DNA of 63,623 bases, filler included, from Reclinomonas americana ATCC 50394 (GCA_048213135.1; 5 parts of 2 records of this genome joined end to end with filler, not necessarily neighbours in it), one strand, 5' to 3'; positions 974 through 44,905 are shown, counted from the whole stretch's first letter. Program-made: numbers and translations. The notes: a model not told the origin generated them from the letters alone.

Positions 974-3900
974 CTAGAAGCGCATAGCAGCGTCAGTGAT
1001 AGCCTGGCATCCCTCCGGCGTGAGATCTGTGCAACGCATGTCACCGATCTGTGTGTTGTGCTCACGTACGTACATGCACTGCGAATACTCACTTGTCTTG
1101 GCGTTTTTCTCAGCCACAGGAACAAAATAGACCCCCTCAACTGTCGGCACCACTGCAGGCACCAGCAACTCGCGCGCCGCCTGGCCTGCAAAGTCCTTGT
1201 CGGTCGCAGCCACCAAGACCACCAACACCGAGCGACGTCGTTCATCCTTGAAGTCCACTGCATCGTGTCGCATGAGAACCATGGACACGCGCTCTCTTGA
1301 CCCCACAATCTGCACTACTCACCTTTGCGTGCTTCGGCAATTGCGCGTATCGTCTCCGCGTCGATCGTGTCAACCACCAGCATGACTCCGTCACTCGTGT
1401 CAATAGGGTTCACAACCTCGCTCCAGTCCGGCGCCCAGCCCTTTCCAGACAGCATTGTGAGGTACACTTGCACAGCCGAGAACAGTTCCAGCTTTCGACC
1501 ACTGGCGCCGACCACGGTGCCGTTGATTACGCGCACGGTTTTGGAAACCTGCAGCGGCAAAGCGCTGCTCGCTGCCGCTGAAAAAGAACGTGAACGCGTC
1601 GATCTGTCGTCGCGGTCGGCCATGGTGGCACTGTTGGCGAGAGAGAGCTGCCCACTAAGCCTCTTGCAGGTGTCGCTGAGAGCAGCATATTCTTGTGCAG
1701 CTCGCTCGAGTTGTTGGCGAAGGGCGGTACAGTCTGCAGTCAAATGCTTGCATTTCGCCACCGAGTCCGCCAACCTCGCATTGACTTGCTCGAGTTCTCC
1801 AGTCAAGTTGTCGATGCGGATGTTGGCGTTCTCGAATTGCTGTTGGAGGCGGTCTCGGTCGGCAGTGGTAGAAGTCAAATTGTTGGTGAGTTGATCGCGG
1901 TCCGCCGTGGCAACGTCAAGCTGCTGTTTAAGCTGGCCACAGGTTGCTTCGGCGGCGCCAAGCTCGACAGCTGACAAGGCCAGCAACGACTCTCTCTCGT
2001 CAAGACGGGAGATATTGACTCTCAGCTGTTCAGTTGCACTGTCGAGCTCCAGCTTGGTGTCGTGGTGCGCAGCCGCCTCCTCCTCCAGCTGCCTCTTCGT
2101 AATGTTGTGGTGTTCCTCTTCGGCCAAGGAGGCTGCGCGGCTGGCATCCAACTCACCCTGGAGCTCATCGCGATGCTGAGTTGCTGTAGTCAATGCCACT
2201 CGAAGCTGCATCATCTGCTTGCGAGCCTCCACAATTTCGGCCTTCAGTGAGTCGATTTCGAATTCGACACGTTCAAGCGCCTTCCATCGACGCTCCACTC
2301 GCGCGACAATGTCCGAGAGGCTGAGTGCTTGCTGGCGATCCTGCTCCGGCAACAGTGCCGTCAGTGCGGCAGTTATCAGTTCGTGCTGCTCCTTGAGGCC
2401 TTCCCGCGACTCCTCCAGTCGCTGCAGCGCATCCATGTCGCGACGCTCTGCCGACGGCAAACCAAGCAGCTGCTCCTGCAGGTGGACGGTAGGCTCAATA
2501 ACCTGACGATGGATATGTTGCAGCAATCGTTGAAGTCGCACTGAGGCGTCTGCATCCGGTGCTGGTGTCGTCGTCGTTGCACAAGCATAAGCAGTTTCGT
2601 ACGCAGCAATTGTTGCGACAATCCGCGTCAAACACTCAAGATGGGCGTCCGCAAGGCTCTCGGTAAGCTTGCTGTCCAGTTGCTGGCGTGCTGTGTCGAG
2701 TGCCACACGCAGTCGCGACTCCAGTTCGCATTGATCGTCAGTTGATGCATCGGAGACTGTGTGCGAAGCCGCCGCTTGCCAGCGCTCCAGATCCACCTCC
2801 GAACTGAAGTCGAGTCGCGCCAGTCGATCCAAGGCGCACAAGAGCAGCGCGCCGCGTTCCTCCATCATCGACTTGTTGGTGAGCGCAGCGCGCTCCCAGT
2901 CGCGGGCGGCGGTCTGGAAGGCGTCCCCCGTATTGGCGTTGCCGATACGTGCAGTTTGCGGACGATCGTCGTCTTGCAACGCCGTGCGCTGATGCTGAAG
3001 CTGATCCGCTCGTGCCTTTTCCTTTGCCGCGCGCCTCTCGGCAGTCGACAGTTGATCCATTAGCATGGCAACCTGAGCTGTAAGTGTGGAGTTGAACTTG
3101 TCCAGAGTAGCGGCGTGACTGGCCTCTCCACGAAGGACGTCAACGTGTCGCAGAAGTTGGGTTGCCCTTGCTTCGAGTTCGCGGTTGCTCGTGTTTGCGT
3201 CCTCGAAACGCCGTACCACTTGTTGCACCTCGACCTCCTTGGCCGCCAGCGTTGCTGTCAGCAGCCCAATCTGCTGTCTTGCGGCGGCAAGTTGTTGCAT
3301 GGCACCATGGTGCTGCCGAAGCAGCTCGCTGTTCTCTGACGTCGCTGAGCCGCAGGCAGCGGGTTCGCGACGCATGCTGTCGCGCTCTTCGGAAAGCTCG
3401 GCAATCTTGCTCCTCAACTGGACCACCACCTCCTGCTGCTGGTCGATGTCGGAGACGAGTCGCTCCAGAGTTTGGCACAATGGTGCTTCTGCGTAGATGC
3501 CGAAACTGTTGCGGCACTTCAGAAGCAGCTCACGTACTCGTGACTGCATGTCGCGTGGCGTGCCGTTTGCGGCGACGGGCTCAGAACCTGCAGCGGTACT
3601 CGACCGAGAAGATGTTGGTTGTGCAGCTGCCGCAAGACGGGCACACTCGGCGTCCACTCGATCGCGATCCGCTTGACCGAGGATTCGTTGCTGAGCCGCC
3701 CGCAGGATACTAAGCTGGTTGTCCCGCTCCGTCACCATCCGGCACGCCTCTTCCGCCGTCTGCTGCCACTCGGCGGCCTGCTTCTCCAGAACTCGCACTT
3801 GATTGGCACGCTCGGCCAGCATCCGGTCCTTCTCGTCTCGCCCTCGCTTGTGATGGCCAGTTTGCATGGCCAACACATCCTTCTCGCAATCGCTCTCGCC

Positions 3901-4465
3901 CTCTGATGCCAACAAGGGGGGTGATCGCGGTGGAACAACCAGCCGATTGACTTGCCATCCGAGGTGCGCATCCGTTACAATGTCATGTTGCGAGCTCAGT
4001 CGTACCTCTTCCTTGCCAGTCTGGTCGACAATTATGAACTGCGCGCGTTGTGTGATGGGCGAAGATGAGCAAACAAATGTAACACAGCACTCTCCGCCCA
4101 GTGAAGCACGCGGGCACATCTGCAAGCATATTTGTATGCACCATCACCACACAACCAATCGAACACTCACCATGAAACGCCGATCTCCGCAGTCAAGGTT
4201 TACGTCAACTGCCCATCGCTTCTCGATCTCGTCGTATGAAACCGACTTGATGCCTGTGGGGAGCTCCTGGCCCAAGGTGAACTGCGGCCACTTGCCAGTC
4301 TTCACATCCTTGACAACAAGGAACACTGGAAGATGGAGGCACGGGCGTAAGATGTGAGGGTGAAAGTCAATTCTCGGTAACTAAAAAGCGTGGGCAAGTA
4401 CCTTTGCTGATTGGTGTCCGTTGATCCTCGCACCTGCGCTTGTACACTAGTAACACACGCACCAT
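974..4465 (-). CDS. Family gene A: CBM48-like N-domain + coiled coil + alpha/beta C-terminal domain type 1 (about 1050 aa)
   Basis: Exons 4465-4402, 4325-4171, 4038-1323, 1257-1093, 1026-974; all GT-AG with consistent phase; exons 1 and 2 (64 and 155 nt) match genes B and C in length; ends NLTPEGCQAITDAAMRF*. Confidence 0.85.
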
Positions 4466-4782
4466 TCTCGTCTCCTCGCCGGCCAACAAAAAGAAAGATT
4501 TCTCTGACACTAACCTGTCGTCTTGTCCGAATTCGCGATTTCCGGCAGGAGCAACCGACGGCAGTTCTAAGGTGTTGTCAGGCGCTGTTTCGGGTGCAAT
4601 GAGTCGCTGACCACGTACTGTGGGGTGTAAAAGTGCATCCCTCCCAAAGAAGCTAACAAGAGAAACACAATTCTGCAGAAAAATGCGTGATTAGCTACAT
4701 GACAACATTGCCAATGCTGGCGCCAGGAAAGACAAAATGCACCATTCACAACAACTCCACCAACAGTCCCTTCTCCGCATCC

Positions 4783-7700
4783 TCAGAACCACATTGCAGC
4801 CTCCGAGAGAGCAGCTCGTCCATCGTCAGTCAGCTTGTCTGCAACGCACGCAGCAAGTTAAGACTCCACCTCGCCCACACACCCATTCCCCATCGCCACT
4901 CACTTGTCTTGCCATTGTTCTCCACCTGCACAAAGAACACTTGCTGCACTCGCGACGCCAGTGACTCGCGTGCCGCCGCAATATCGAAATCCCTCGGCAC
5001 CATGACCACCAGCACGGACCGACGACGTGCATCCATCAAGTCCACTGCACAGCAATTCAGCACCTTTGCTTCTCTATCCCTTCCTCTTCTCCTGTCACCA
5101 CTCACCTGCAAACTCGGCCATCATGTTCTCCACATCCACCACCAGCATGATGCCGACGGTGGAGTCGGCTGGAATCGCACTGTCGCTCCAGTCCGCCGCC
5201 CAGCTCTTGCCAGGCAGCATGGTGAGGTACACCTGCACGGCTGACAGCGACTCGGAGTTGCGATTGGAGGTGCCGTTGATCACTCGGACCGTGGTGACGG
5301 AGGAAAGTCGTCGAGTGTAGTGAGTCGGGGTCGAGCGTGAAGGCAGAGCGTCGCTGCCGGCAGCCGCTGAGACAATGGAAGGTGGTGGAGTCGGCCTGTC
5401 GGCATCGTCGCCGTTCCTGAGGCCATCGAGCTCGGCAGTGGCATTGGCGAGCTGTTGTCGAAGGCGCTCACAGTTGGCGCGGAGCTCATCGCACTGCGCA
5501 GTCAGCAAGACAGAGGAGGTCACCTGGTTTCTGAGTTGCTCGTATTCCGCAGTGAGTCTGCCGCTGTTGAAGATGGCATTGGCGAGTTGCTGTCGAAGAG
5601 TGTCCCGGTCCAGGCTGAGATGATTGCGCTCCACAGTGAGGGTGTTGATGGTGTCCTTGGCAGTGGCGAGTTCTTGATTGAGCTGGTCGCGAGACTGGGA
5701 GAGGATGCCGTTGGCGCTGGTGGCCTTGGTCAGCTCGACATTGAGTCTCTCGAGTTCCACCTTGTCGAGGTTGCGCGCCGCCGTTTCGTCGTCCACCTGG
5801 TGCTTGGTGATGTTGTGACTTTCGACTTCCGCGTCGAATTTCCGCTCCGCGACAAGTGTGGCGGCGCGCTCGGCGTCCAGTTCGTGTTGCAAAGCATCCA
5901 GGTGCTGAGTGGCCGATGTGCAGGCTTGCTGAAGCTGATCGACCTGCTTCTTGAGTTGTTGAGCTTCCTCGTTCGACTCATGCAACGCCTCCAGCAGTCT
6001 CTCGCATTCGTCCAGCCGCTCCTGTACCGCTCCCATCAAGGTGCCACACTGAGCCTTCCAGTAGTCGATGCAAGCGCGCGCGGCTTGTTCCAGGTCTGCA
6101 ACAGTGCGGTCCACTCGTTGTTGCTGCTGTTGTTGATCTGGCGTGTTCTCCGCAAAGTACTGGCACAGCTTGTCAGCAGTCTCGACAAGTCGATCCACGT
6201 CAGCAAGCGCCTTGTCGCGCTGCTGAACGACGCTGGCGATGGCCTCCTGCACATTCACCTCGCCGTCACTGGCACCGAGTTGGAGAGTGGAAACAATCTG
6301 CGCGAGATCCGGCAGCTTGCTCTCCATATGCTGACGTGCAGAGCCCAGTGCCTCTTGGAGTCGCGACTTGAAGTCGAAGTGGTCGTCAGTCGAGGCAGCG
6401 TCCTCCGCTGCAGTGGATCGCCAGTGCTGCAGGTCCACCTCCGGGTTGAAGTCAAGGTTCCTCAGTCGTTCCAGGGCGCACATGAGCAGAGCGCCGCGTT
6501 CCTCCATCATCGACTTGTTGGAGATGGCAGCGCGTTCCCAGTCACGGGCCGCGGTCTGGAAGGCCTGATTTGCCGCTCTGAGCTCATCCACGGCATTGCG
6601 GAGCTCGATGAGATTCGATTCCGCTTGGTTGTGGTCATCCTGCAACAACTTGAATCGATGTTGCAAATCGTCCGCTCGCGCCTTCTCCGCTGCCGCCCTG
6701 TTGGAGGCGTCTGCAAGCTGGTCCGCAAGCGTGTCAACTTGAACCAACAGAGTGGCGTTGAACTCTTCCAGAGTTACGGCGCGACTCGTCTCGCCGCGAA
6801 GCTCGTCAACCTGGCGCTGAAGTTGATGGACTTGCTGCTGTAGTTCGCTGCATCGAGCTTCCGAGGAGGTGAACCGTCGCGTCACCTGCTCGACAGCTGC
6901 CTCTTTTGCCAGAATGGCTTGACTTGTGGCCTCCAGAGTTGCAGTGAGCGATCCGATCTGCTTGTTGGCTACGACCAGCTGTTGCGAAGCCTCACCGTAC
7001 CGGCGAAGCAGCTCGCCGCTTTCCGACGGTGCCGACGTTCGGCTCGCCAGCTCACCGCGCAGGCTGTCGCGCTCTTTCGAGATGCTGACCAGAGTCGTGT
7101 TGAGGTCCTCGCAACGGCGCTGCTGGTGTTGAATCTCCGCAAGCTGCCGGTCGTGGGCCTCGACAAGGCCCTCGACTACACGGCGCAAGGCAAATTCGTT
7201 CAATGAGCTGCCAGTGCGGCATTGACGAATGAGCTCGCCAACACGTGTGTGCAAGTCGCGCGGAACGCCTTCTGCATCGACAACCTCGAAGCCGGCGGGA
7301 GCTTGCAGCTGTCCAAGTGGCTCCGATACCGGTTCTGGCTGTGACGGGTTCGGCGTCGACGTCTGCGTCGGCGCCGCGGTACGCAGGCGCTCAAGTTCAA
7401 TTGCCAGGATGTCTCTGTCGGAACGCAGTTGATCACGCTCCTCCTTCAGACTGCGGTTGTCAGCCTCCAAGAAAGCCACCTTGTTGCCGGATTCGGCAAG
7501 TCTGCGGTTCTCGGCCCTCAGATGGACCAACTCGTCTTCGCGATTTCTCGTCATCAGGTAGGCTTCGTCTGCTACGGCGCGCAGCTCGGCGACTTGGTCC
7601 TCCAAACCCCGCACCTGGTCGTCTCGCTCAGCCACCATGCGGCCGTACTCCTCCACTGAAGCAGCTAGTCTTAGACGTTCAGCCTGAACAGAATCCAATT

Positions 7701-8127
7701 GGCTCAGCAGCTCGTCTACGTGCACGGCGTATTCGTCTCGGTCGTACTCAGCCGCGACTCGATGCTTGTACTCGTCATCCCAGGTTTTCTTGCGCGGGGC
7801 TGCAACCAACAGTCGGTTGACCTTGTAGCCGAGATGTTCATCCATGACAGAGTCGTACTGCTTGCTCACACGCCACTCTTCCTTGTTGGTGTCGTTGATG
7901 ACAAGGAACTGCATCGTGCAAAACCAGAAACAAATGTCAGCAAAAAGCCTCGAGCTTCACTGCAAAGGAGCTGCACGCACCAAATGGAGATGCAACAACA
8001 AACAAGTACAGAGTGACATGCACAAATCATCTCATGAACTCTCTCTCTCTCTCTCAGTCTTTCACACACACTCACTCACTCTTTCCCTTTTCTTCTCTTA
8101 CTCACTCACTTACACGCACACGCACAC

Positions 8128-8187
<60 letters not shown>

Positions 8188-8474
8188 ACTCACCAGGAAC
8201 CGTCGATCGCCGATGTCGAGATTCACATCAACAGTCCACTTCTTCGACGCCTCGTCAAAGAAAACTTCTTTGACACCAAGGGGTAGTAGCTGACCAAAGG
8301 GAAACTGCGGCCACTTCCCTGTCGCGAGATCCTTGATGTAGACAAACACTGCAAGCCATGATTGAGCTGCAAGCAGCACACTTATTGTTCTGGGGAGCGA
8401 GCTCACAAACCGCGCTTGTTGGACGTTTCTGGGTCATTGCGCATGCGCTTGTACTCCAGAGTCACACGCACCAT
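4783..8474 (-). CDS. Family gene B: CBM48-like N-domain + coiled coil + C-terminal domain type 1 (about 1072 aa)
   Basis: Exons 8474-8411, 8348-8194, 7908-5106, 5044-4904, 4838-4783; shares AFQTAARDWERAA..NKSMMEERGALL.CAL.RL with A and a similar segment with C; ends NKLTDDGRAALSEAAMWF*. Confidence 0.85.
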
Positions 8475-8640
8475 CGCGCTCTCCTCACCGATCACCAGAA
8501 AATGTCAGACGGACGAATGAATGCCGTCCGCGACCATTCCCGGCAAAACGCGACACGTGACTGTCGCCCGCCGCTGCTTGCAATTGTTGGCTGGACTTTG
8601 CTTCATCTCCACCCTCCAAACCAACAAAACTCATGATCAT

Positions 8641-10468
8641 TCACTGCGACGACGCCATCCTCCCTGCCTCCAAATCCCGATCCTCACCTCTCTCCCCTTC
8701 TCCCCCTCCACTCGCCACCACCACCACCTCCTCCTCCACCCTCTCCGCCACCCCCTGCAACGCCTGCTTGCACACCGGCACCAAACACTGCCCACAGAAC
8801 TCGCCCAGCTCCTTCTTCCCCGTGTTCCCAATCGCCTGCCACCACCACCACCGCTTGTCAGCACCTTTCCTCCTCCCCCTCCTTTTCTCCTCCGCCCCCC
8901 TTCCCCAACGCAACTCTCTCGCCCGTCCGCTGATTCTTCTCCACATGCACAAACCCAAATCGATCGTCAAACCGCACCGCCTGCCGCTCCAACTCCACCG
9001 GATCCTCCGTGCTCGTCTTGGTCACCCCGTAGCGCATGCTCGACGCCATGCTCACCAGATCCTCCGTGCCGTTGCTCGGCAGCACCAGCAAGACGACAAC
9101 GCGAGGGTCGTCGGTGTTGACTGCGACGAGGAGGAGTCAAACTCAGCTGTCGAAAACGCCTTCATCCTGGAAGAAGTGCTCACCTCCCCGCCGTTGCGCA
9201 GCCTCCCGAATGTCGGCCGGATGTACGCGCGTCTCCATCGGGTGGCACACCACAATGCAGTGATGGCGCTCGTCGTGGGCGTCAACGACTTGCGAGGCGT
9301 CGGAGACACAGGTAATGTTGACGCGCAACATTGGCCGTTCGCGCTGTCCGTACGCGCCGACCACGGGCGTCAGCGCGTGGTGCACCATGGTGACGAGCGA
9401 CTCGTCTTGCCGGCGCTGCTGTGGTTGCGACGGCGGGGCCGCGGCGGTGGACAGCAGCAGCACCGACACGTTGGTTATCGGCACCGGAGGCCGAAGTGGT
9501 CGCAGTGGACTCGGATCCGAGAAACAACACAGTCGTACGTCGACGTTGTCGGGCGCAGCTGGCGTGCCGACGGATTCGGAAGACGACGGTCCGTCCACAG
9601 CTGGTGTGGATGCGGGGCTACCAATGGCTGGTGGTGATGCAACGCTGTCGACGACCGGTGTCACGAACCTATCGCTCTCCAGTACCGCCGTGGCACAGTG
9701 GTCCTTCATCGACCCCACCTCCTTGCGCAAGTCGCCAATGCCACCCAGGACTCGCTGAATAAGTTGGGCGTTCAGCTGTTCCAGTACATGTATCCGTGCC
9801 TCCTGAGTCTGCAGTTTTTCTAGGAGATTCTGGTTCGCCTTCTCACGCTCGTCGGCCGCCAGCACGAGTTGCTCACTGAGTTGCCGACGGAGCTCGGCGT
9901 AGCGCAGCTCCAGCACGTGAATCCTAGAGTCGTTTTCCTCCTTCTGAGCCTGCAATTCGGCTTGACCAGCATGGTACGCCTGCTCAAGGTCGCTGATTGA
10001 CTGTGCGGCAGAGGCGGCCTCCAGCGTGTGTCGACTCTCCTCTCCCTGCAGCTCGCGAATCCGCTCCACGGCAACTTTACAGGCAAGGTCAAATAGACGT
10101 GGAAAATCTCGAACCAAGAATACCGTCGTTTCGACAACGTCCTCTGCGTCTCCCGACGGCGGCACTCCTACAGCAGAGTCGAATTCGTATCGATGGCTAT
10201 CAACACCAAGAATGTCTGCCGTGTTTGCCAGTATGTTGTCGATCTTGCGGCTTGCATCGTCGATTTCCCAGGCAATGCGTGCCACTGGGTCAGCGGCAGC
10301 AGCGGATCCGGATGAGCTTCCTCCGCTTTGTGTGACGATGCGGCTGCCACCCTTCATAGGCTGCGCATTCGGCATCAACACTGTAGCAATGGTGTCGACT
10401 GCGTCGTCATTGCAAGCACCCGCACGTGATCGATTTCGTTTCGAATTCCGGCTGAACAATGCTCCCAT
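8641..10468 (-). CDS. Family gene E: short coiled coil + alpha/beta C-terminal domain type 2 (up to about 561 aa; start uncertain: 10468, 10375 or 10357)
   Basis: Exons (10468)-9184, 9120-8915, 8835-8641; HHCIVVCHPMETRVHPADIREAA matches gene C HQCVVYCHRAETRVTPVEIRDSA; same intron positions as C. Confidence 0.75.
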
Positions 10469-13400
10469 CCAACACTCGCCGAAGTCTGTGCCGAGCAACA
10501 GAGATCGGCGCGAACATCTCGGAATCGAACTCTCTTCTGCGCGCTAACTGCACTCCTTCCTGTCCTGCCTTGCGCTTGCCTATCCCTCTTCCTTCCTTCG
10601 TTTCTCTCTCTCTCTCTCCACATCCCACATTGAATCGATAACGCTCCACCTCTCCCATTCTCTCTCCCTCTTTCATCTTTCACTTCCTCTGCGCCCATAT
10701 TCTCCATCTCATTCTCTCCCCCTCCACCTTCTCCTCTCCCTTCCCGCATCCCTCACCTCTTGTTCAACCAAATAACTCCGCGGCACCTCTGCGTAATAAG
10801 GTGCTTCACACTCCTCGTCAACCTCCTCTCCGTAAGAACCCTCCACAACAGCAGCCCACAAAAAAACGCTCTTCAGCACAGTGACGCACGCAATCACGCA
10901 CGCACTGCTCACTCAAGATATTCTTGTTTGGTGTGNNNNNNNNNNNNNNNNNNNNNNNNNNNNNNNNNNNNNNNNNNNNNNNNNNNNNNNNNNNNNNNNN
11001 NNNNNNNNNNNNNNNNNNNNNNNNNNNNNNNNNNNNNNNNNNNNNNNNNNNNNNNNNNNNNNNNNNNNNNNNNNNNNNNNNNNNNNNNNNNNNNNNNNNN
11101 NNNNNNNNNNNNNNNNNNNNNNNNNNNNNNNNNNNNNNNNNNNNNNNNNNNNNNNNNNNNNNNNNNNNNNNNNNNNNNNNNNNNNNNNNNNNNNNNNNNN
11201 NNNNNNNNNNNNNNNNNNNNNNNNNNNNNNNNNNNNNNNNNNNNNNNNNNNNNNNNNNNNNNNNNNNNNNNNNNNNNNNNNNNNNNNNNNNNNNNNNNNN
11301 NNNNNNNNNNNNNNNNNNNNNNNNNNNNNNNNNNNNNNNNNNNNNNNNNNNNNNNNNNNNNNNNNNNNNNNNNNNNNNNNNNNNNNNNNNNNNNNNNNNN
11401 NNNNNNNNNNNNNNNNNNNNNNNNNNNNNNNNNNNNNNNNNNNNNNNNNNNNNNNNNNNNNNNNNNNNNNNNNNNNNNNNNNNNNNNNNNNNNNNNNNNN
11501 NNNNNNNNNNNNNNNNNNNNNNNNNNNNNNNNNNNNNNNNNNNNNNNNNNNNNNNNNNNNNNNNNNNNNNNNNNNNNNNNNNNNNNNNNNNNNNNNNNNN
11601 NNNNNNNNNNNNNNNNNNNNNNNNNNNNNNNNNNNNNNNNNNNNNNNNNNNNNNNNNNNNNNNNNNNNNNNNNNNNNNNNNNNNNNNNNNNNNNNNNNNN
11701 CGTTGATGTCCTTCTGACAATGACAGACTTGATGTTGTCCGCGCTAAAATCGGTGTCTTTCTCGCAGCGTTCTGCCCTCGTTCCTCTTCTCCAACCGCAG
11801 GGTGCACTGACAGAGAAGAGAGAACTGCTTCAAGACGTCTTTGCCGGATTTCCAATCGAATCCTGTCAAAACAAGACACGACAAGCTCCTTTCCCTCTTC
11901 TCCCTCTTTCTCCGCTTACATTAAAAAAACCCTGTTCACAAATCCCTCTATCCCGGTCCATCCGACGCATCCCCACCCGTCAGCATCAGTGGCGTGCTAT
12001 CAGTGGCCGACAGCGAGTCCGACTCGGGCGTCGGTAATGAGGCCGCCGGATCTCGCCTCGCCGGCGCCAAGTGCCGCTGCGATGACGCCGACGCCGCCGC
12101 CGAAGAGGCCGGAGCTGCAGCACCGAGAATGGCAGCAGCAGCCGCATCGCCAAAGTCGTCTTCCTCGTCGTAGCCGCACACTGTGTGAGGGGGGAAGGAT
12201 GAGCGGGCGGGCAAATCAATCATCGGAAATAAAAAACATACCATCGGAGAAAGGCACGTGCTGCTGAGGCGAGGGCGTCAGAAGGGTCTCGGACTCGGTG
12301 GAGCGTGCGCGAGGCTTGAGCGTTATCTGCACGAGAAGAATGGGAGCAGCGAGATAAGCGAAAGAACTCAACATCGAAAACACACTCCTAACAGATATAG
12401 TTGTGGAAGGAAAGCACATTTCCCTTCCCCCTCACCACCCTTTCCCCTCACCACCCTTCCCTTACGCAACTCTCATCGACCGCACCCCCGAATCACTCCT
12501 CGACCCACCCGCCAATCCCACCTTATGCCCATCCTCATCGCCATCCTCCTCCTCCTCCTCCTCGCCACCACCCTCCCCATCCCCGCGCACCACCGTCCCC
12601 GCCCCCGGTAATGTGTGCACGGTACTCGCGGCCGACGACGCCGATGACGTCGGCGACAATGGCGACACCCCGACCTCGGCCGGCGGCACCTGCAACCCAC
12701 TGCCACTACCACCACTCCCACTACCACTGCCGGCGGCCACCGTGGCAGCCGCGGCGGCCGACGGACTGNNNNNNNNNNNNNNNNNNNNNNNNNNNNNNNN
12801 NNNNNNNNNNNNNNNNNNNNNNNNNNNNNNNNNNNNNNNNNNNNNNNNNNNNNNNNNNNNNNNNNNNNCCGGGCGCCACCTCGGCCAGGTACGACACCAC
12901 GGCGTTGAGGTCCACCTGCGGCAGCAGGAACGGGAGCGGGATGTTGAGGTCCTTGAACCAGAGGATGAGGTTCCAGAAGGTGGTCGGGTGGTCGCGGAAC
13001 AGGTTTTCGTCGCAGGACACGTCCTGTGAAGCGGGCAAAGGAGAGGTCAGCGCAATAAACGGGGAGGGAGGGGGAGGGAAGGGAGAGGGAGAAGGGGGAG
13101 GGGAAAGGGAGAGGCAGAAGGAGAGAAGGTGAGGAAGGTGGGAAAGGAGCGTGTGCGTGAGAGAGAGAGAGAGAACAAGCAAAAGAGAGAGAGACGATCT
13201 GCAAGTGAATCCTCCTGACATGGACACAAACTAAGACAATCTATCACGTATTATCTCTCACTCTCCCTTTCACTCGCACTCTCGCACATACATGCAACAC
13301 ATCGAGAAAGAGAAAGAGAGAACGAACAAAAGAGAGAGCCTCTTTATCGACACAACAATCTCACTCTCGTTCTCCATCTCCCTCGCACAACTGCAGCACA

Positions 13401-19215: not shown

Positions 19216-19248
<33 letters not shown>

Positions 19249-23117: not shown

Positions 23118-23329
23118 TCCTCTCTCACACACAAAACACACACTAAAACACACACTAAAACACACTCAATCTCTCACACTAGAGAGAAAAAGCGCGAATA
23201 TGAACTTTTCCTGCGCACAACTCTGTGCACGCAATGCACTAGTGGACAGTAACGCGCTCTCTCTGCGTGTGTGTGCGCCTGGTAAAGAGAAAGACACGCG
23301 CGTGTTTGTGTGTGTGTGAGAGTGTGTGA

Positions 23330-23815: not shown

Positions 23816-23841
23816 CGTTTTCTCTCTCCCTCTCTCTCCCC

Positions 23842-23903
<62 letters not shown>

Positions 23904-24254: not shown

Positions 24255-24311
<57 letters not shown>

Positions 24312-24635
24312 AGATAGAGAGAGCAAAGAGGAAGAGAAGAAGGGAAGCTCAGCGTGCACGCCACATCGATGCTGATTATTCCTATCTCACTTTGCCGCTC
24401 ACACACTGAGAGAGAGAGAGAGAGGAGGAGGAGGAGACTCTTCGAGTGTGTCTTCCCATTACTCTTTGACCCTATCACACAGATTGAGCACGTTTTTGCA
24501 CTCTCTTCTCTCACACTCACGAGATAAGCAACACATCGACGACTGAGTTGATCCTATCTCTCGTTGACACTCTCACAGGAGACGCGCAACTCTGCAATGA
24601 CTTCCATCCCTCTCACTCTTTCCTCCCTCCTTCAG

Positions 24636-26971: not shown

Positions 26972-27024
<53 letters not shown>

Positions 27025-33600: not shown

Positions 33601-34417
33601 ATTCTCGAGTCGTACCCGGTGGACGACGGTGCGGTGAATGCGGCGCGGGTGGGCCTGATGGTGGTGGTCATTTTTTCGTTTCCGCTGATTCACTACGGCG
33701 CGCGCTATCATGTGAGTGGGCAGTGCGAGAGAAGAGAGAGTTCTGCGACGAAAGGGCGAGCGAGAGAAAGCACAGCGCAAGAGGAGAAAAAAAGGCGAGA
33801 GAGAAAGGGGAGGGGAGAATGCAATGTGCAGATTTCCGCTCTCTCACTCTTTTTTTTTCGCCAGCTGGAGACCCTGTGGCTGCACCGCTACATGCCGTCG
33901 GTGTGGGTCAATATCGTCACCACGACGTCGATTGTGGTGCTGGCGACGGCGCTGGCGGTGCTGGTGCCGAATGTGGAGGATATTTTTGGGATAACGGGGG
34001 CGACGGCGGCGGGTGGGTGGTGGGGAGGAAAGAGAGGGGGAAGGGGGAGGGAGGGAAAGGGGGAGAGGGTAAAGGGGAAAGGAGGAAGAGAGGGGGATAC
34101 GCGCACAGTGATTCACAGCGGGAGAGGAAGTCAGAAGGCGCAGTCATATCTGCGATGTTGCACGAGTGAATCCAGAGTGGAAAAGAAGAGTGAGGAAGGA
34201 GACGGCAGTGTGGAGGGAACAGAGAGAGAGAGAGGGAGAGAGAGAGACACACACACACACACACACAACAAAAGAACAAAAGAAAAGAGTAGAAATGAGA
34301 AGAGAGCAAGCGCAAATGACGCTACTGAGTACGAATAGAACAGTGGGGAAAGAGCAACGGTGCAGAGTGAGCTGGTCTACTCTCTCTCTCTCTCACATAC
34401 GTATTGAAAGAGTGTGC

Positions 34418-34451
<34 letters not shown>

Positions 34452-35226: not shown

Positions 35227-35264
<38 letters not shown>

Positions 35265-35966: not shown

Positions 35967-36039
35967 AATGTAAGTAGAATGTGATATATCTCTATGCAAG
36001 GGAGATGGCATGGAAGAGAAAGAGAGAGGAGGGAGAATG

Positions 36040-37030
36040 TGGGCGGGCGGAAGGCAAAGGTGCGTCTATGATATTCAAGTCGTCACTGCGCTTCTTCAGC
36101 AGGTTGCTTACTTGTTCTCTCTCTGGCAGCACCGGCACCACCGCAAAAGGCATGCTGCACCCTGATAGATTCGTGTGATACAGATGTGTGTGAGGGGAGA
36201 GTGTGGACGGGAGAACGTCAACGGTAAGGTGTTCAACTCTTCACTACACGTCTGTAAATAAGTTCCCCACTGCTCTGTTGTTATTCTCTCTCCAGCAGCA
36301 TAAAGTGCATCAGTTCATCTCGCGCAATTGTCTTTTTCTCACGGATGGGATAGACACGGATGAGGCAGACTGCTGACGAGTGGGCGGCAAAGGTGAGTGA
36401 GTGAGTGAGTGAGTGAGTGAGTGAGTGTGTGAGTGTGTGTGTGTGTGTGGAGCGTTCAAATCGTCGCTGCGCTTCTTCAAACAAGTTTCTTACTTATTCT
36501 CTCTCCGGCAGCACCGACACCACTGCGAAAGACAAACTGCACTATCTTGGAGCAGGGTTTGCATTTTCGTGCTCTAATTCTCTGCTGTGCACAAGCTGCA
36601 CCTGTTCATCTCGCACAGTTGTTGTCTTCGGTATCACGGATGGGGTAGGCCGTGGACGAGTGGGCGGCAAAGGTTTGCAATGTATTCAGATCTTCACTGA
36701 ACTTCTCTCTCTCTCTGGTAGCAGCACCGGCACTACCGCGAAAGGCAAACTGCACTTTGTTGCACTGTGTTGTGCTCTTTCAACAATAACTTCGCTGTCA
36801 TTCTCAAGCACGTGCACCTCCGTGCTGTGCACAAACTGCACCTGTTCATCGTCTGTGCAGCGCTGGTGTGTGTGACAAAGGGGGTGTGGGGAATGTGATC
36901 GGCAAAGGTTTGCATCGTGTTCAGTTCTTCACTGCACGTATTTAAACAAGTTTCTCACTATTCTCTCTCCGGCAGAACCGGCACCACGGCAGTACGCACA
37001 AACTGCACCAGTTCATCTCGGGCAATTGTC
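36040..37030 (-). repeat. Degenerate tandem array (about 5 units) of gene C's last exon plus 3' flank
   Basis: Recurring ttctctctccggcagcaccggcac and ggcaaaggt motifs; copies translate to TIARDELMHFMLLERE* and AVVPVLPEREQ. Confidence 0.8.
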
Positions 37031-40000
37031 TGTGGTGCACAGTGTGAGAAAGGCAGTGGCTGGTAAACAGAGGGGGCACATCAACGCAACTCGAGTCTCC
37101 CGCTCCTCGACGAGCACTGAGGCGCGAGAGTCGAACCGCACGAAGTCTGGCGTGCCGCGGTCCTTCTCGAGGCCGTATTTCAAGCATCGCGCCATGTCGG
37201 GGAGGTCGATGGTGCCGCTCTTGGGCGTCACCACCAGCACGAGGACGCGGTCTTGCTCCACGTCGACTGCGCACGGAGATCGTGATGAGCGACTGTTCAG
37301 CAAACCCCCTCCTTTCCCTTTGCCGCTCACCTCCAACAGACATGGCCGAGTCGCGAATCTCCACTGGCGTCACACGAGTTTCGGCGCGGTGGCAGTACAC
37401 GACGCACTGGTGGCGCTTGAGGTCGGCGGGCGTGCATCGCTCCGTCGGCATGAATACGAAGCGGCGACCCTGCACGAGGCCGCCGGCCATTTGCAGAGAC
37501 TGCGATAGGGTGCGTTGGAGTGGCCGCTGGGCCTCGCAGGCGACAACGAGGATGTTGGTGTTGCTCTGGGGGTCGTCGCTGTACTGCGTCATCCAGCTGG
37601 CGTTGCCTTGCTGCGGGCGCGAGGGGAGCTCGCGGTCGTCGGGGCGGGTGGGACGCGGTGATACCGGCGGCTGAGGGGCGACGACAATGTCGGTGGGCAC
37701 GGTTGCTGCTGGCGCGGCTGCTGTGGCGATTGGTGGCACAGGGCTGCTGCCAGAGGACGAGGCGCCACCGGTCTCCTGAGTGCCGTTGGCATCGAGTTTG
37801 ACTGAGGTGAGGGCGTCGTCGATCTCCTGCTGCATCGCGGATACGTCGCGCCGCGCCTGCGCGATGAAGTCCGCTACCGTCTTCTTGGCGGCATCGCGTT
37901 GGGCGGTGATGGTCGTCAGTTGCTCGGCGAGGCGATTGAATACTTCGGTTGCGGCGGTAAGCTGGCTGCTGAGATCGGCGAATTTGCGGTTGGCTTCAGC
38001 GAGTTGTTGTTGGAGGTTCTTGCAGTCGGCGGTCGAGGCCGCCAGATCGATCTTGAGCTGATCGCGCTCCGAGGTGAGGGTGTAGATCGTGTCCCTGGCA
38101 TCTGCAAGTTCCTGGCGGAGGCGCTCACACTGCGCAACCGAGGCAGCCAGTTGAATCGTGAGTTGATCTCGCACGGTGTTCAGTTCGCTAATGGCGTCCG
38201 CGAGTTGTTGTCGGAGATTTTCACGGTCCGCTCTGAGTTGATCGCATTCCGATCTGAGGGCGCTGATCGTGTCCTTTGCAGTGGCCAGTTCCTGACTGAG
38301 CTGGTCGCGGAATCCAGTGATGGTGCCGATCGTGCTGGTGGACTTGGTAAGCTCCAACTCCTTCTCGTCAAGGCGGGTGAGATTGGCACGAAGCTGCTCG
38401 CCGACCTCCTCCAGTCTCCGCTTGGTGTCGTTGTGAGCAGCCATCTCGGCGGCCAGTTCGCGCTTGGTGATGTAGTGGCTTTCGACTTCCGCGTCGAACT
38501 TCCTCTCCGCCGCAAATGTGGCAGCACGCTCGACCTCCAGCTCGCGCTGTAGAGCCGCCTGCGCGTCCTTCAGAGCGTTGCAGTTGTGAGTGACCGCGTC
38601 GAAGGCCTGTTGCAGCTGCTTGATCTGCTTGCCGGCCTCGACTTGCTCCGCAGCAGCCTGTTTGGCCGCCACCAACATATCCTCTCGCAGGTCTCGAACT
38701 TGGTTGTTGGCCGTGTCTCGCTCTGCCTGCAAGTGCCTGACTTGCTCATGCAGCTCCCGAATTTGCGTGTTGCTGCGCTCCCGCTCCACTTGCTGCTGCC
38801 GCGCCTGCCCGTTTGCAACCCGCAACTCTTCTTGCAGCCGCTCGCATTCGACAACCCGCTCTTGCACCGCTGCCTTCAATGTGGCACACTCCGCCTTCCA
38901 GCAGTCGACACAGTCGTGCACGGCTTGCTCCAGGGCTGCTTCTGCTTCGTGTGCTCCCCGAGGTTGCTGTTGCACCTGGCCACGGTACGGCTTTTGCTGT
39001 TGTTGACTCGGTTTGTTGTCTGCCAAGTACAGGCGCAGCTTGTCAGCAGCCTTGACGAGGCAATCCAGGTTAGCAAGCGCCAAGTCTCGCTCCTGGATAA
39101 CACTGTGGACAGCCACAGTTACATCAACAGCGACGTCACCGGAGCTGCGTTGAAGTGCCTTCGCGAGCGCGGCACAAATGTCGCGCATTGTTGTTGTCGT
39201 GTCGTCAACGATCTCGGCAAGTGTGGCTTGTTCGTGCCGTAGGCGACGTGGCAGTACCGCTGACAGGCGGTGTATGGCATCGATGCCCATGTCAATCATG
39301 TCGCGTACGGCTGCCTCGAGACTGCTCGCTGGCTTGGTCGGCATGGCCAGTCGCAACTGATTGAGAAGTCGCAGATGGTGATCCACGACGCGGGCTGCAG
39401 CGAACTCGAAGTTGCAGACGCCCTCGTCAGGTACATCGTCCATTAGCAGCGACGTCAGTTGAGTGGCTGACCGGGTGATCACTGTCTCTCGTGCCTGCCA
39501 AGAAGCTTCAACACGAGCGACGACGTCGGTGAGGCTGAGCGGTTGCTGGCGATCCTGCGCAGGTACCAAGGCCGCCAACGCACCAATGACCTGTTGCTGC
39601 TGTTGAGTCAGGCCGTACTTGGATTCTGCTACGCGCCGCGTCACGTCCATGTCGCGCCGCTCAGCCGACGGCCAACCGAGCAGCTGTTCTTGGAACTCGA
39701 TGGTGGGCTCGACAACTTGCCGATGCATGTGTTGCAACAGTCGCTGAAGTCGGGCTGGTGTGTCTGCATCTGGTGTTGGTGTGTCTGCATCTTGTGTTGG
39801 TGTAGTTGCGCAGCCGTATGCCGTTTCGAATCCTTTGATAGTTGCGTCCACCTGAGTCAGCCACTGGGATTGCGCCTCACTGAGGATGCAAGCAAGCCTG
39901 CTTTGCAATTGCTGTCGCGCAGCGTCCAGTGACTCGCGAAGCTGTTGCTCACAGTTGTCGTCACTCGATGCAGTTGAGGTACCCTCAGAAGTGCTGCGCC

Positions 40001-41668
40001 AGTGATCCAGGTCCACCTCAGGGTTGAAGTCAAGTCGCGCCAATCGATCCAAGGCGCACATGAAGAGCGCGCCGCGCTCCTCCATTGTCGACATGATGGC
40101 AAGGGTAGCGCACTCCGAATCGCGGACCCTGGTGTGCAAGGACTCATTGGCCCCTCTGAGATCGAACACAGCGTTGCGGAGTTCCGCGACATTCCGCTCA
40201 GTCTCGGCACGATCATCTTGCAGCGCCTTGAACTGAGTTTGCAAGTGATCCGCTCGAGTCTTCTCGTCGGCAGCCCTCTTCTCGGCAGACGCAAGATGGT
40301 CCGTGAGTGCCTTCAGGGAGGCGTTGACGTCCTCAAGAATTGGGGCGCGGCCGGCGGCACCTCGAAGATCCTCAAGATCGCGTTGTTGTTGTGCGACCGT
40401 TGCTTCGAGATCGCCGTTGCTCGTGATGGCGTCCTCGAATCGCCTCTTCACTTGTTGCAATTCCAGCTCCTTGACCGCCAGAGTTGCAGTCAAGTGGCCA
40501 ATTTCCTTGCTGGCATTAGCCAGCTGCCGAAGAACCTCGCCATTTTCCGACAACGGGGTGTGGGCAGCTGCGTCGTGGCTCAGGCGGTCGCGCTCATCCG
40601 ACACTTCGGCAAGGCTTCGTTTGAGCTTGTCCAACTCCTCTTGCTGCTGGTCCAGTTCCTTGACGAGTCCCTCGAGAGTCTGGCGCACTTGCATCTCAGC
40701 ATAGGCGCCATGGCCATTGCCGCTGCGACACTGCCGCAGCAGCTCGCGCACTCGCGTTTGTATGTCGTGCCGTGAACTCTCCCCGTCGACAAGGACAAAG
40801 TCTGCAGCGGCACTGGCAGGAGGCAATCTCTGCTGCGGCGTCGTTGGCATCGACGCCGCTGAGCAAGACGCCCGAAGTGCTGCGGCACGACGCGCATACT
40901 CGGCATTCAGCCGTTCGCGCTCGATCGGACTCAGGATGCTGAGCTTGTTGTCACGTTCAGTCACCATCCTGTAGGCCTCTTCGGCTGTCCGCTGCCACTC
41001 GATTGCTTGCGTCTGAAGAGTGCGCACTTGATTGTCACGCTCCGCAAGCTTCGTGATCTGCTCTTCTCGCTCCGCCGCGAGCTCTTCAAGTTGAAGTACC
41101 AGTTCGTCCCGTGCGTGCTCCGCCTCCACCCGAAGGCGGTACTCGTCGTCCCACGACCTCTTGGGTGGCCTCGCAACCACAAGGCGATTTACATGCCATC
41201 CGAGGTGTTCGTCCTTGACGCAGTCGTGCAAAGAACTCAGACGCCATTCCTCCTTGTTTGACTGGTCGATCACGTAGAACTGCGACCGTGAACGTAAGCA
41301 GACAAGTTATACACACAGAGAGTGTGTGTGGTGTGTGTGTGTGTGGAGAGAGAGAAAGTAGGGAGGGGGAAGAGACACACACAGCTCACCATAAAGCGTC
41401 GATCACCGCCTTCCAGATGCATGCAAACTCTCCAGTTCTGCTCAGCGTTATCGTACGTCGCCTTCTTGACGCCAGGAGGAGGTTCCTGGTCGGAGGTAAA
41501 CCGAGGCCATTGCGACGTCTTCAAGTCCTTGACGCCCACGTACACTGACAGCAACGATCATGTTAGCTGCACAACAAGATTGTTGGCGTTGCAAATGAAT
41601 CTACCTTGCTTTATCGGCGTCTGTGGATCTTCGCGCATTCGCTTGTATCGCAGCACTACGCGCCCCAT
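36958..41668 (-). CDS. Family gene C: CBM48-like N-domain + extended coiled coil + C-terminal domain type 2 (about 1471 aa)
   Basis: Exons 41668-41605, 41544-41390, 41279-37331, 37266-37091, 37029-36958; N-terminus homologous to A/B, C-terminus homologous to E; ends TIARDELVQFVRTAVVPVLPERE*. Confidence 0.85.
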
Positions 41669-42069
41669 ATTCTCCTCTGTCACACGCACTTCACTCGATG
41701 CACCGTGTCTCTCTTCGCTCGCTTGCAACACGAAAAAGAATAGGCTGTCAATCGTCAGTCGGTCTTGACCTGTCATTTCTGCCGTGTTTCTCGCTGTTGT
41801 CCGGCCCGGCAATCATGCACTGCTTCGCCGAGCTCTGTTCTCTTGCGTTGCCTCCTCTCCAACCTTCCAACCACGGTGCAAAAAGAGTCTGACAACATTT
41901 CTGAAATGCTCGTCGCCCACAGCATGCCGCTTCGCGCCTGACAAGTGCGCCATCACATCTCCTCACAAAAACCAACAAGAACGGACGGAGCTCTTATGTC
42001 AGCTGCTGCGTGCATGTCCCTTGCAAGATAAACATGCATGGAAAGCGCGCGCGCATGTCGGAGAATTTT

Positions 42070-42121
<52 letters not shown>

Positions 42122-42330
42122 TCGTGTCGACCGCTTAGTTCCTCACGCAGTAGCCAGTGACCTTGCGCTATGTTCATCAACGACCGGCGTGGTGTCGACC
42201 ACTCGCCTCTATCATTCTCCCTTCCGCCCATTTCACCTTACCGTTCCCGCTCCAGCTCTCTTAAGCCGTCAATGAACTCTGTTTTCTTTCATTGCATCGC
42301 CATCACCATCACCAACTCTCCTCCCTCGAC

Positions 42331-42806
42331 TCAATCAAACCACGCTGCCGCCCCCCGCATCGCCGCAGTTCCTTCCCGCGTAAGTGCCAGCTTGTCTGCA
42401 CAGAAACGCCACTCAATCAGCACACCACTCCCTACCACCCACACCCCTCCATGGCCACCCCCACACTCACTTGTCTTTACTTCCTGGGTGACCACCAAGA
42501 AGAACAGCTCCTCCTGCGACGACACCACGTCCGGCACCAGTCGCTCGCGAACCAGCGGCACCACCGTGGCGGCACTGGCCTCCGCCACCATGATCACCAG
42601 CACCGATCGGCCGTCCTTGAGGTCCACTGCGAAGACAAGAGAGTGAGCCACACCAGAAGAAAGGAGAGGGGGGAAGAACACCGCAACAACTGCAAGGAAG
42701 AGGAACAGGAGAAAGAGAAGAAGAAGAGCAACAACAACAACAACAACAACAACAACACCACCACCACCACCACAACAACAACAACAACAACAACAACAAC
42801 CACAAG

Positions 42807-42837
<31 letters not shown>

Positions 42838-44905
42838 GCAATAACAATAACAACAACAATGTCAACAACAGCAACAATAACAACAACGTGAGGGAGAACA
42901 CGAAACAGAATGAGGAGAAGGAGAAGTAGAAGAAGGAAACGACGATATAATTAAGGAGGAGGAGAAGAACAACACCAACAACAACAACATGTACAACAAC
43001 ATGAAGGGGAAGAAGAAGGAGGAGGAGGAGGAGGATGAGGAGGAGGAGCTCGAGGAGAAAAACAAGAACAAGAAAAGGAGAAGAGGAAAACTTCAGGAAG
43101 ACAACATGAAGGAGGATATTAGGAAGGAAGTACAGTAGCAGAGACAAGGACAGCAAACAGCAACAACAACAAGAAAGACCAGGAAGAGGAACACGAGGAG
43201 GAGAAGGAGAAGAAGAACAAGAAAAAGAAGAAGGAAGAGAGTCAGGAGGAAGAGAACAGAAGAAGAACATCAACAACCCAACAACAACAACAAGCAAAAG
43301 AAGAAAAGACCAAGACCAACTTTCTCCTCCNNNNNNNNNNNNNNNNNNNNNNNNNNNNNNNNNNNNNNNNNNNNTTAATTAATTAANNNNNNNNNNNNNN
43401 NNNNNNNNNNNNNNNNNNNNNNNNNNNNNNTCCACCCCTTCCCCTTCCTTACCTCCACCCCCTCCCTCCTCCCCCCGCCCGCCCTCCTCACCACCTCCAC
43501 ATCACCCACCACCCCCACCCCACCCCCCCTCCTCCGCCACCACCACATCCATCACCAACATCACCCCCACCTCCGGCCCCGCCCCCGCCGCATTCTCACT
43601 CCAATCCCACCCATTGCCACCGCCACGATTGTGCATCGACAGCTGCCAGCGGAGGCTCCCAAACGCCTCCGCGCGGCAGCCGACGGTGCCGTTGATCACC
43701 TTGACCTTCGGGAAGGTGCGTCGCTCGCCACTCCGTCGCGGCACCATGAGCAGCAGCGGTGTCGGTGGCGGTGGCGAAAGGGCACTGCTCCCCGCAGCGG
43801 CGGAGACAGAGATCTCTGCTGGCGCAGGCGCAGGAGAAGCAGCAGCAGCAGCAGTGACGATAGCCACCGGCGTGACCGGCGCAGGCGAAGTAGGTGCCGT
43901 GGACTCGGCGACGCACTCCTCGAGCAGTTCAATGTCCTCCTCATCCACATCAGGTTGTGAAAGGTCGTCGTCGTCATCATAGACATCGTCGTCGCGGTCG
44001 ACCACAGGCTCGGCGACCATCGTGCTTTCGACCGACAGCAACAGCGGCTGCAACACGTCCAGGTGCTTGCCCACCATTTGCAGCAACCTTTCCAGCTTGG
44101 CATCCATGCGCTCCAACTGCAGCGGCTTGGCCGCCACCTCCTCGGCCTCCAGCAAGCGGCCTCGCAGATGCGCCACTTCTGCCGTGGCCTCGTCAAGAAG
44201 GACGCGCAGCCTGTCCATGTCGGCTTGGGCAGCCTCCTTCTCGGCGCGCACCCTGCCGATCTCGTCATCCTTCTCGGCGCGCAGTTGGCTAATCGCTGCA
44301 TCCGCGGCCTCCTTCTCGAGTCGCACCCTGCCGATCTCCTCGTCCTTCTCGGCGCGCAGTTGGCAAATCGCTGCATCCTTCTCGGCACGCACCCTGCCGA
44401 TCTCCTCATCCTTCTCGGCGCGCACCCTGCTGATCTCGGCATCCTTCTCGGCACGAACCCTGCTGATCTCGGCATCCTTCTCGGCACGCACCCTGCCAAT
44501 CTCCTGATCCTTCTCCGCCCGCACCCTGCCAATCTCCTCATCCTTCTCAGCTCGCACCCTGCTGCTCTCGGCATCGGCGGCCTCCTTCTCGGCCTGCAGC
44601 CTGCCAATCTCGGCTCGCAGTCGACCAACTTCCTCATCGCGAGCCTCCCGATCGGCACGCAGCGACTCGACCTCTGCCCGCAAGGCCTCCTTCTCAGCCT
44701 CCCACGCCTCCTGGGCGATACGCCTCTCCTCAACGAGAGCTTGGAGCGACGCCACAGTCTCCTGTGTCTTTGCGTCGGCCACCGCAAGCTCCTCGGCCTT
44801 GGTGGCCAGCAAGCGATGGAGATCCTGCAACTCTTTCTCAAAATCACGCGGCTCCTCCTTGGGCGCTGCGGCCTCGGCCGGCGCGCGATCGTCCACGTCA
44901 GACAT
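42331..44905 (-). CDS. Family gene D: 11-residue-repeat coiled coil + C-terminal domain type 1 (about 535 aa)
   Basis: Exons 44905-about 43519, 42626-42471, 42395-42331; KVKVINGT..DWSE..VGVMLVMD / VDLKDGRSVLVIMV / NKLALTREGTAAMRGAAAWFD* align with A and B; crosses a scaffolding linker. Confidence 0.8.
42730..42890. repeat. (AAC)n/(ACC)n microsatellite in a gene D intron
   Basis: Directly visible. Confidence 0.9.
44230..44610 (-). repeat. Coding 33-bp tandem repeat encoding (AEKD[E/A]EI[G/S]RVR)n
   Basis: Visible in both DNA and translation. Confidence 0.9.

Follow-up and report, generated by a model that had tools for sequence, protein, structure and literature searches.

What do five minus-strand genes encode that lie in two clusters within a 63,623-nucleotide (nt) stretch of DNA from Reclinomonas americana ATCC 50394 (GCA_048213135.1; the whole stretch is called the window below), and what might such proteins do? 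The genes, named A to E, combine a few modules: an N-terminal head, a coiled-coil stalk and a C-terminal tail, and all four head/tail combinations are present among the five, within 45 kb. As far as we could search, the family that they form is previously undescribed, and its members would suit cytosolic scaffolds or tethers, possibly for storage-glucan particles. A preliminary description of this DNA had placed five genes in two clusters on the minus strand, and all five were found where it had put them, with spliced frames devoid of internal stops; the edges of the span that it delimited, 974 and 44905, are the last base of the stop codon of A and the ATG of D.

Splice junctions were read from three-frame displays, GT and AG sites were listed by coordinate, and the models were then assembled in silico from five long minus-strand frames (1315-4143, 5095-7956, 9143-10543, 36942-41306, and 43502-45319). 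The resulting genes, with exons given in the order of transcription, are as follows.

974-4465, minus strand: gene A, 1050 residues, with head, stalk 1, and tail type 1; five exons (4465-4402, 4325-4171, 4038-1323, 1257-1093, 1026-974), introns of 76, 132, 65, and 66 nt in phases 1, 0, 1, and 1.
4783-8474, minus strand: gene B, 1072 residues, with head, stalk 1, and tail type 1; five exons (8474-8411, 8348-8194, 7908-5106, 5044-4904, 4838-4783), introns of 62, 285, 61, and 65 nt in phases 1, 0, 1, and 1.
8641-10468, minus strand: gene E, 561 residues, headless, with an N-terminal region of its own, a short coil, and tail type 2; three exons (10468-9184, 9120-8915, 8835-8641), introns of 63 nt in phase 1 and of 79 nt in phase 0, the latter with a GTTGCG donor.
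36958-41668, minus strand: gene C, 1471 residues, with head, the longest version of stalk 1, and tail type 2; five exons (41668-41605, 41544-41390, 41279-37331, 37266-37091, 37029-36958), introns of 60, 110, 64, and 61 nt in phases 1, 0, 1, and 0.
42331-44905, minus strand: gene D, 535 residues, headless, with a repeat stalk and tail type 1; three exons (44905-43519, with an ambiguous donor, 42626-42471, 42395-42331), the first intron of 892 nt being of low complexity.

All introns are of the GT...AG kind and measure 60-285 nt, with the single exception, in length, of the first intron of D, for which three phase-1 GT sites (43519, 43513, and 43510) can serve as donor. Two introns are common to the three heads, one in phase 1 after codon 21 and one in phase 0 after the motif RRF[M/L]. 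In agreement with the preliminary description, a phase-1 intron splits the Val codon of a V[D/N] motif ahead of a VLV strand in all five genes, and a further intron precedes the last helix in all five; this last intron is not uniform, its phase and donor going with tail type: phase 1 and GTGAGT for type 1 (A, B, and D), phase 0 and GTTGCG for type 2 (C and E). Judged by their clean frames and by junction positions conserved between paralogs, these are five real paralogous genes. A, B, C, and E each lie on uninterrupted sequence. A contig-join linker at 43331-43430 falls inside the first intron of D, so that the joining of the two parts of D, like the distance between the clusters, rests on scaffolding.

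The head, which is found in A, B, and C with pairwise identities of 50-60%, occupies the following positions.

3931-4465, minus strand: head of A, ~110 residues in three exons; the equivalents are at ~7801-8474 in B and ~41172-41668 in C.

The preliminary description had called this module CBM48-like. We aligned the three spliced heads, as a profile, with profiles of bacterial AMPK1_CBM domains (PF16561, CBM48 clan) by hhalign, using column shuffles of the head as null. The bacterial reference came from PF16561 matches, present in 138 of 301 genomes of one phylum, and was built from open frames at 14 of 33 loci and then at 16 of 34. With the 14-domain set the score was 22.5 (E 0.0023, 55 columns), a value that none of 300 shuffles reached (mean 11.5, standard deviation 2.5, maximum 20.0); with the 16-domain set it rose to 25.5 (E 5.2e-4, 53 columns), again unmatched by any of 150 shuffles (mean 11.3, standard deviation 2.4, maximum 19.9). 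Scores were 11.5 for the reversed head and 11.8-14.1 when Ras, TIR, and receiver templates took the place of AMPK1_CBM, and a positive control, the PF16561 set against a PF02922 set, gave 68.5. A second hhalign run against AMPK1_CBM covered 91 columns and the whole domain (E 0.011). Moreover, hmmsearch with a hidden Markov model of the bacterial domain selected residues ~51-116 of B and C and, more weakly, of A, and nothing else in the five proteins. In the alignments, head residues ~52-113 correspond to the second half of AMPK1_CBM, with a G-x-x-x-aromatic-x-F-x-V-D strand, a following Trp in B and C, and a late Asn; in all three heads the latter is aligned with the glucan-contacting Asn. The likeness thus comprises size (~85-110 residues), a predicted all-beta character and a profile similarity that lies beyond all 450 shuffles. 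We consider that there is moderate support for the head being an all-beta module, remotely related to, and descended from, an AMPK-beta-type glycogen-binding module. The earlier label thus gains from the profile comparison as regards kinship with AMPK1_CBM, and it is not borne out by Pfam, which gave no match, or by the comparison with classical CBM_48, which was not significant. The heads differ from AMPK1_CBM in standing N-terminally on a long rod, and not in a kinase subunit or an enzyme.

The stalks are poor in Pro and rich in heptads. By a simple heuristic, Pro-free heptad-like segments total 518 residues in A, 618 in B, 748 in C, 161 in D, and 157 in E, which corresponds to 45-58% of A, B, and C; a linker rich in Pro, Ser, and Ala, together with the heptad-rich stalk, comes before the tail. 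The matches of the stalks in Pfam, NCBIfam, and PADLOC were coiled-coil families or the arms of SMC, Rad50, LmuB, or JetC proteins alone, at 13-53 bits; the NCBIfam cut-offs for these arm families are 300-1000 bits, and PADLOC lists none. Two stalk features have defined positions.

2779-2904, minus strand: best-conserved stretch of stalk 1 (residues ~452-493 of A), with invariant columns 379-420 of the three-way A/B/C alignment.
44235-44575, minus strand: repeat of the D stalk with a 33-nt (11-residue) unit (Tandem Repeats Finder: period 33, 10.1 copies, 75% matches).

The first of these lies near the middle of the rod, without clear heptads, and is possibly a hinge or a binding site. In D, ten tandem 11-residue units form most of the stalk, and hendecads of this kind usually form right-handed coiled coils or amphipathic helices that lie on lipid surfaces. 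E begins with MGALFS followed by basic residues; MGxxxS/T is the textbook consensus for N-myristoylation, a signal that this N-terminus would fit.

The tail, of ~140-200 residues, is the sole module found in all five genes.

974-1545, minus strand: tail type 1 of A, ~150 residues in three exons; the equivalents are at 4783-5313 in B and at 42331-43732 in D, where it is split by the long intron.
36958-37526, minus strand: tail type 2 of C; the equivalent is at 8641-9409 in E.

Identities are 56% for A-B, 43% for A-D, 42% for B-D, and 38% for C-E, and 16-26% across types; the tail of E bears an acidic, Gly-rich C-terminal extension. The preliminary description had spoken of two swappable C-terminal domains. 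Profiles of type 1 (A, B, and D) and type 2 (C and E) can be aligned by hhalign with an E-value of 0.019 over 62 columns, which span the shared intron site, the R-x-V-L-V-V strand and, ahead of the last intron, an E-[KR]-N-x-[KR]-T turn. Because of this match, and because the intron at V[D/N] has the same phase and site in both, the two types are probably diverged versions, or subtypes, of one domain, and that claim has to be revised. Sequence inspection and a low-confidence model agree on a secondary structure of alternating strands and helices, and searches of PDB sequences with both halves of the tail gave nothing below E 0.5. We considered several known domains and rejected each; overall, the profile scores of the tails lay inside the shuffle ranges or barely reached their edge, and the alignments were short. 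A Ras-like GTPase lacks support from motifs, as no conserved P-loop (GxxxxGK[S/T]) or NKxD was seen in the five tails, and from Pfam, which gave no match; against 14 cyanobacterial Ras domains (usable at 14 of 30 loci) hhalign gave 16.4 for type 1 (reached by 2 of 60 shuffles), 10.7 for type 2 (45 of 60), and 16.1 for all five tails (1 of 60). Against nine TIR_2 domains (9 of 9 loci) scores were 11.9-15.4 over only 9-19 columns (E 0.12-0.39), near the shuffle maxima, with no TIR match in Pfam or PADLOC. Receiver (CheY-like; 25 of 25 loci) and Roadblock/LC7 templates (2 of 2, the template holding just two sequences) scored 11.0-14.2, within shuffle ranges, and a weak Pfam match of the tail of A to Toprim (E 0.086) was set aside, its D-x-D-like motif being absent in B and D. 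The tail would be a new small alpha/beta domain, the two subtypes of which may pair.

How these modules are distributed is clear from comparisons of the spliced proteins. By blastp, A and B share 37% identity over 1158 aligned positions, A and C 51% over 691, and B and C 43% over 609 and 41% over 349, whereas the similarity of A to D (40% over 148), of B to D (40% over 140), and of C to E (39% over 120) is confined to the C-terminal tail; E-values between paralogs range from 0 to, at the weakest, 1e-16, and the stalks of D and E gave no significant blastp match to any other member. In the columns that they share, A, B, and C are roughly equidistant (50-60% identity in the head, mostly 40-60% in the stalk), and their differences are largely segmental: one stalk segment is common to A and C and lacking in B, another is common to B and C and lacking in A, and C has both and more besides. 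In a maximum-likelihood tree of the tails, the split between (A,B,D) and (C,E) has 100/100 support. The blastp comparisons and the tail tree together bear out the combinations proposed previously, that is, head, stalk 1, and tail 1 in A and B, head, stalk 1, and tail 2 in C, and other stalks with tail 1 in D and tail 2 in E. They also bear out the incongruence of modules that such a scenario predicts, since the tails group A and B with D, whereas head and stalk 1 unite A, B, and C. Owing to this conflict, at least one recombination or N-terminal replacement event is needed. The conserved introns interrupt head and tail themselves and do not fall at module edges, and the similarity between B and D begins in the Pro/Ser/Ala-rich linker ahead of the tail; the swaps are therefore not classical intron-mediated exon shuffling. 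With its four head/tail combinations, the locus is a small, clean case of module recombination among paralogs.

We looked for relatives of the family in several collections. Among 1.84 billion representative proteins, an hmmsearch profile built from the long exons of the three headed genes gave 48 matches with E-values of 1e-3 or less and none at or below 1e-10, and in every one of the 48 the best stretch starts at profile positions 582-837, that is, in the coiled coil; the result holds for the long exons, not for exons 1-2 (head) and 4-5 (tail), tail type 2, or the D and E stalks. Metagenome scans gave 154 pattern matches for a stalk/head profile and 119 for a tail-type-1 profile, none of which was confirmed. 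Word-index protein searches with the long exon of A and with E found no relatives, a weak blank given that the same tool missed a neighboring kinesin exon recognized by Pfam, and the best score of the first exon of E against the ESM Atlas, 0.83, was at noise level. In a full-text literature search no description of this architecture was found, and the matches were plastid starch scaffolds of plants and algae, PTST and BSG1 among them, and a preprint on prokaryotic immunity. Profile, library, metagenome, and literature searches therefore agree with the preliminary description, which had not recognized a described family. We call the family lineage-restricted in the sense that it was not found in the collections searched, where relatives of the source organism lack a positive control.

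Taken as a whole, these features suggest, as a tentative reading that we hold to be possible rather than probable, a lineage-restricted family of cytosolic coiled-coil scaffolds or tethers, possibly serving storage-glucan particles. The proteins would form coiled-coil dimers, with the tail as the common docking or pairing domain of the family; the head of A, B, and C would bind an alpha-glucan particle (cytosolic glycogen or a starch-like granule) or a similar ligand; and the headless D and E would join the same docking tail to other front ends, E being anchored to a membrane by its predicted N-myristoylation and basic patch and D supplying a helix of 11-residue repeats. The site of action would be cytosolic because the headed proteins start directly with the head, without a presequence. 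It is the profile similarity of the head to AMPK1_CBM that keeps the glucan part of this reading alive: a granule scaffold had been offered as an alternative in the preliminary description, and of this proposal the head module gains moderate profile support and glucan binding itself stays putative.

The closest functional parallel is found in plastids. PTST (PROTEIN TARGETING TO STARCH) of plants is a chloroplastic family with a C-terminal CBM48 behind a short coiled coil (PMC4339375), and Chlamydomonas BSG1 joins a CBM20 to a coiled coil of ~80 residues in a protein with a chloroplast transit peptide (PMC6374437). Comparable with the headed proteins and their putative glucan module, these are non-enzymatic proteins in which a starch-binding module is combined with a coiled coil, and they serve storage glucan as scaffolds or targeting factors (PMC4339375, PMC6374437). 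Unlike PTST and BSG1, the proteins studied here carry the module at the protein start, lack a presequence, contain 160-750 coil residues, and have an extra conserved tail; no sequence relationship was detected in the word-index and 1.84-billion-protein searches. Should the head bind glucan, very long cytosolic rods with an N-terminal CBM and a dedicated tail domain would here be seen for the first time, and the idea of a scaffold made of a starch-binding module and a coiled coil would extend from the plastid proteins PTST and BSG1 to another compartment and another lineage.

Several results weigh against this reading. Pfam models PF16561 and PF02922 matched neither the exons of the three heads nor the head of A translated across its in-frame 132-nt intron (X replacing the stop) at E-values up to 10, nor raw open reading frames at E-values up to 1; a PDB sequence search with the head gave nothing below E 0.5; and against the PF02922 (GlgB/GlgX-type CBM_48) set the head scored 12.5, a value matched by 14 of 100 shuffles. 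The residue aligned with the glucan-contacting Lys is Met or Leu in all three heads. An AlphaFold2 model of the head of A, computed without exon 1 and with a 44-residue intron read-through, has eight strands and no helix, in line with an all-beta head, but at low confidence (mean predicted local distance difference test score, pLDDT, 42.7), and that of the tail of E, computed from a three-row alignment with the in-frame intron read through, X at two stops and the last helix absent, reaches a pLDDT of 39.1; both values are too low to establish either fold. As for the aromatic contacts, W133 of AMPK-beta is one of two Trp named as glucan-binding (PMC4339375). By alignment, the equivalent of W133 is a Trp in B and C and a Val in A, and the equivalent of the first Trp, W100, is uncertain, being offset by three positions. 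The tail matched nothing in the libraries searched (Pfam, NCBIfam, and PADLOC), nor the four families tested by profile, and no polar position is conserved throughout the five tails, which also argues against an enzyme. Finally, the splice models derive from the genomic sequence alone.

These same observations lend themselves to a second reading, to which we give equal weight and which retains the architecture and dispenses with the glucan: the head would be a diverged beta-sandwich that binds a protein, and the family would consist of cytoskeletal or organelle-tethering rods with a logic like that of golgins or motor adaptors. Golgins, EEA1, and the large Rab GTPases (EF-hand, coiled coil, and Rab domain) are long coiled-coil tethers or adaptors with different end domains; they generally have a ligand-binding head, a rod, and an anchoring end, and their paralogs vary one end. 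The incompletely kept set of sugar contacts, with Lys replaced in all heads and Trp lost in A, speaks for such rods, as do a head that escapes the Pfam model and is absent from two of the five members, the apparently membrane-anchored E and the repeat helix of the D stalk. The likeness to golgins, EEA1, and large Rab GTPases is nonetheless one without homology, and the tail is no recognizable GTPase. Moreover, the similarity to AMPK1_CBM is specific, with 0 of 450 shuffles reaching it, and shows at least descent from a glucan-binding module, and no cytoskeleton- or membrane-binding domain was found in the library scans.

The arrangement of the genes invites a more specific version of the glucan-tether reading. 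On the minus strand, cluster 1 reads E (type 2), B (type 1), A (type 1), and cluster 2 reads D (type 1), C (type 2), so that, as had been noted previously, the two tail types occur in each cluster, as do headed and headless members; in both clusters, the tail type of the upstream headless gene is the opposite of that of the downstream headed gene or genes. The intergenic gaps, of 166 nt between E and B (8475-8640), 317 nt between B and A (4466-4782), and 662 nt between D and C (41669-42330), are far shorter than those elsewhere in the window, which suggests co-transcription or shared regulation. No sixth copy of the family was found by tblastn of the five proteins against the window. Local duplication has also left traces:

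36302-36957, minus strand: three decayed tandem copies of the last exon of C with its flank (repeat families D2-D7, spacings of 167-465 nt).

These copies lie beyond the stop codon of C, and the one checked has a 10-nt deletion and is out of frame with the phase-0 donor; they look like remnants of local duplication, not functional alternative end exons. Because headless and headed neighbors have opposite tail types in both clusters, type 1 and type 2 tails might be a heterodimerizing docking pair, which would link a glucan-binding rod to one that is anchored in a membrane or built of a repeat helix, as a two-component tether that positions storage-glucan particles or other cargo. We regard this as rather unlikely; if true, it would amount to a new kind of machinery for positioning granules, with a new alpha/beta docking domain at its base.

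Quite improbable, in our view, is a family of fold-back rods resembling SMC or Rad50, with an antiparallel stalk, the conserved middle stretch at the apex, and head and tail brought together at one composite end. The non-heptad stretch of A (~452-493) is indeed flanked by coil blocks of similar length (~141-432 and ~602-877), and the best matches in NCBIfam and PADLOC, far below threshold, are the arms of SMC, Rad50, LmuB, and JetC. However, at 31-53 bits against cut-offs of 300-1000 these matches, which concern arm regions alone, mirror coiled-coil composition, and the family has no ATPase head or hinge. The arms of B would also be unequal in length; of the stalk segments of C, one is missing in A and another in B, which would leave paired arms unbalanced; and the stalks of the headless members are short.

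The preliminary description had also compared the genes with innate-immune receptor and adaptor families, as a sensor-rod-effector system diversifying by shuffling. In favor of such a family one can cite the clustering of paralogs in all four head/tail combinations, the decayed copies of an end exon behind C, and confinement, as far as searchable, to one lineage, yet we find it very unlikely. Scans of the five long exons with Pfam, NCBIfam, and PADLOC revealed no NTPase switch (NACHT or NB-ARC), TIR, death-fold, nuclease, or repeat sensor, and the PADLOC matches are confined to the coiled coil; the tail scores against the TIR template stay close to the shuffle maxima, and no catalytic-looking residue is conserved in it. 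In addition, the paralogs are old (~40-60% identity) and not recently diversified, and their neighbors are of a housekeeping type (DENN, CIR-N, amino-acid transporter, and kinesin). That the locus is a non-functional assembly artefact or a decaying pseudogene cluster, as a draft scaffold broken by 22 N-runs, with a contig-join linker inside D and others elsewhere, might suggest, is hardly credible given open frames of 535-1471 codons, canonical junctions at positions kept between paralogs that are ~40-55% identical, and the location of four of the five genes on uninterrupted sequence.

The window as a whole is GC-rich (~50-60% within genes) and eukaryotic, with short GT-AG introns and neighbors matching kinesin, DENN, amino-acid transporter, and CIR N-terminal domains. 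Four of the 22 N-runs are identical linkers of the form N44-TTAATTAATTAA-N44, a six-frame stop spacer, and the other 18 are 20-920 nt long, N amounting to 6227 nt in the window; because the same linker recurs, we regard the window as a pseudomolecule of ordered contigs. These linkers and the neighboring genes are positioned as follows.

16308-16407, 26781-26880, 43331-43430, and 60966-61065, no strand: N44-TTAATTAATTAA-N44 linkers, the same sequence each.
16461-17880, minus strand: exons of a DENN domain (Pfam), between the two clusters.
24488-24760, plus strand: exon of a CIR N-terminal domain (Pfam), between the two clusters.
33295-34335, plus strand: exon of an amino-acid transporter (Pfam), between the two clusters.
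55193-56700, plus strand: divergent, intron-split kinesin motor (Pfam Kinesin, E 6.7e-18, in one exon).

Further motor motifs of the kinesin were seen in other frames. No mobile-element signature was found by Pfam in the neighborhood, the context being one of housekeeping-type genes, and Rfam and tRNA scans of the whole window gave no matches. On the 3′ side of gene A, a small minus-strand frame (190-717) begins with MGACC, a start resembling those of dually acylated proteins, and continues as a low-complexity sequence rich in Pro, Gln, and His, with no Pfam match. Microsatellites of the (TC)n, (CA)n, and (GTGA)n types are plentiful in introns and intergenic DNA, for example at ~8090-8190, in the 285-nt intron of B, and at 36393-36447.

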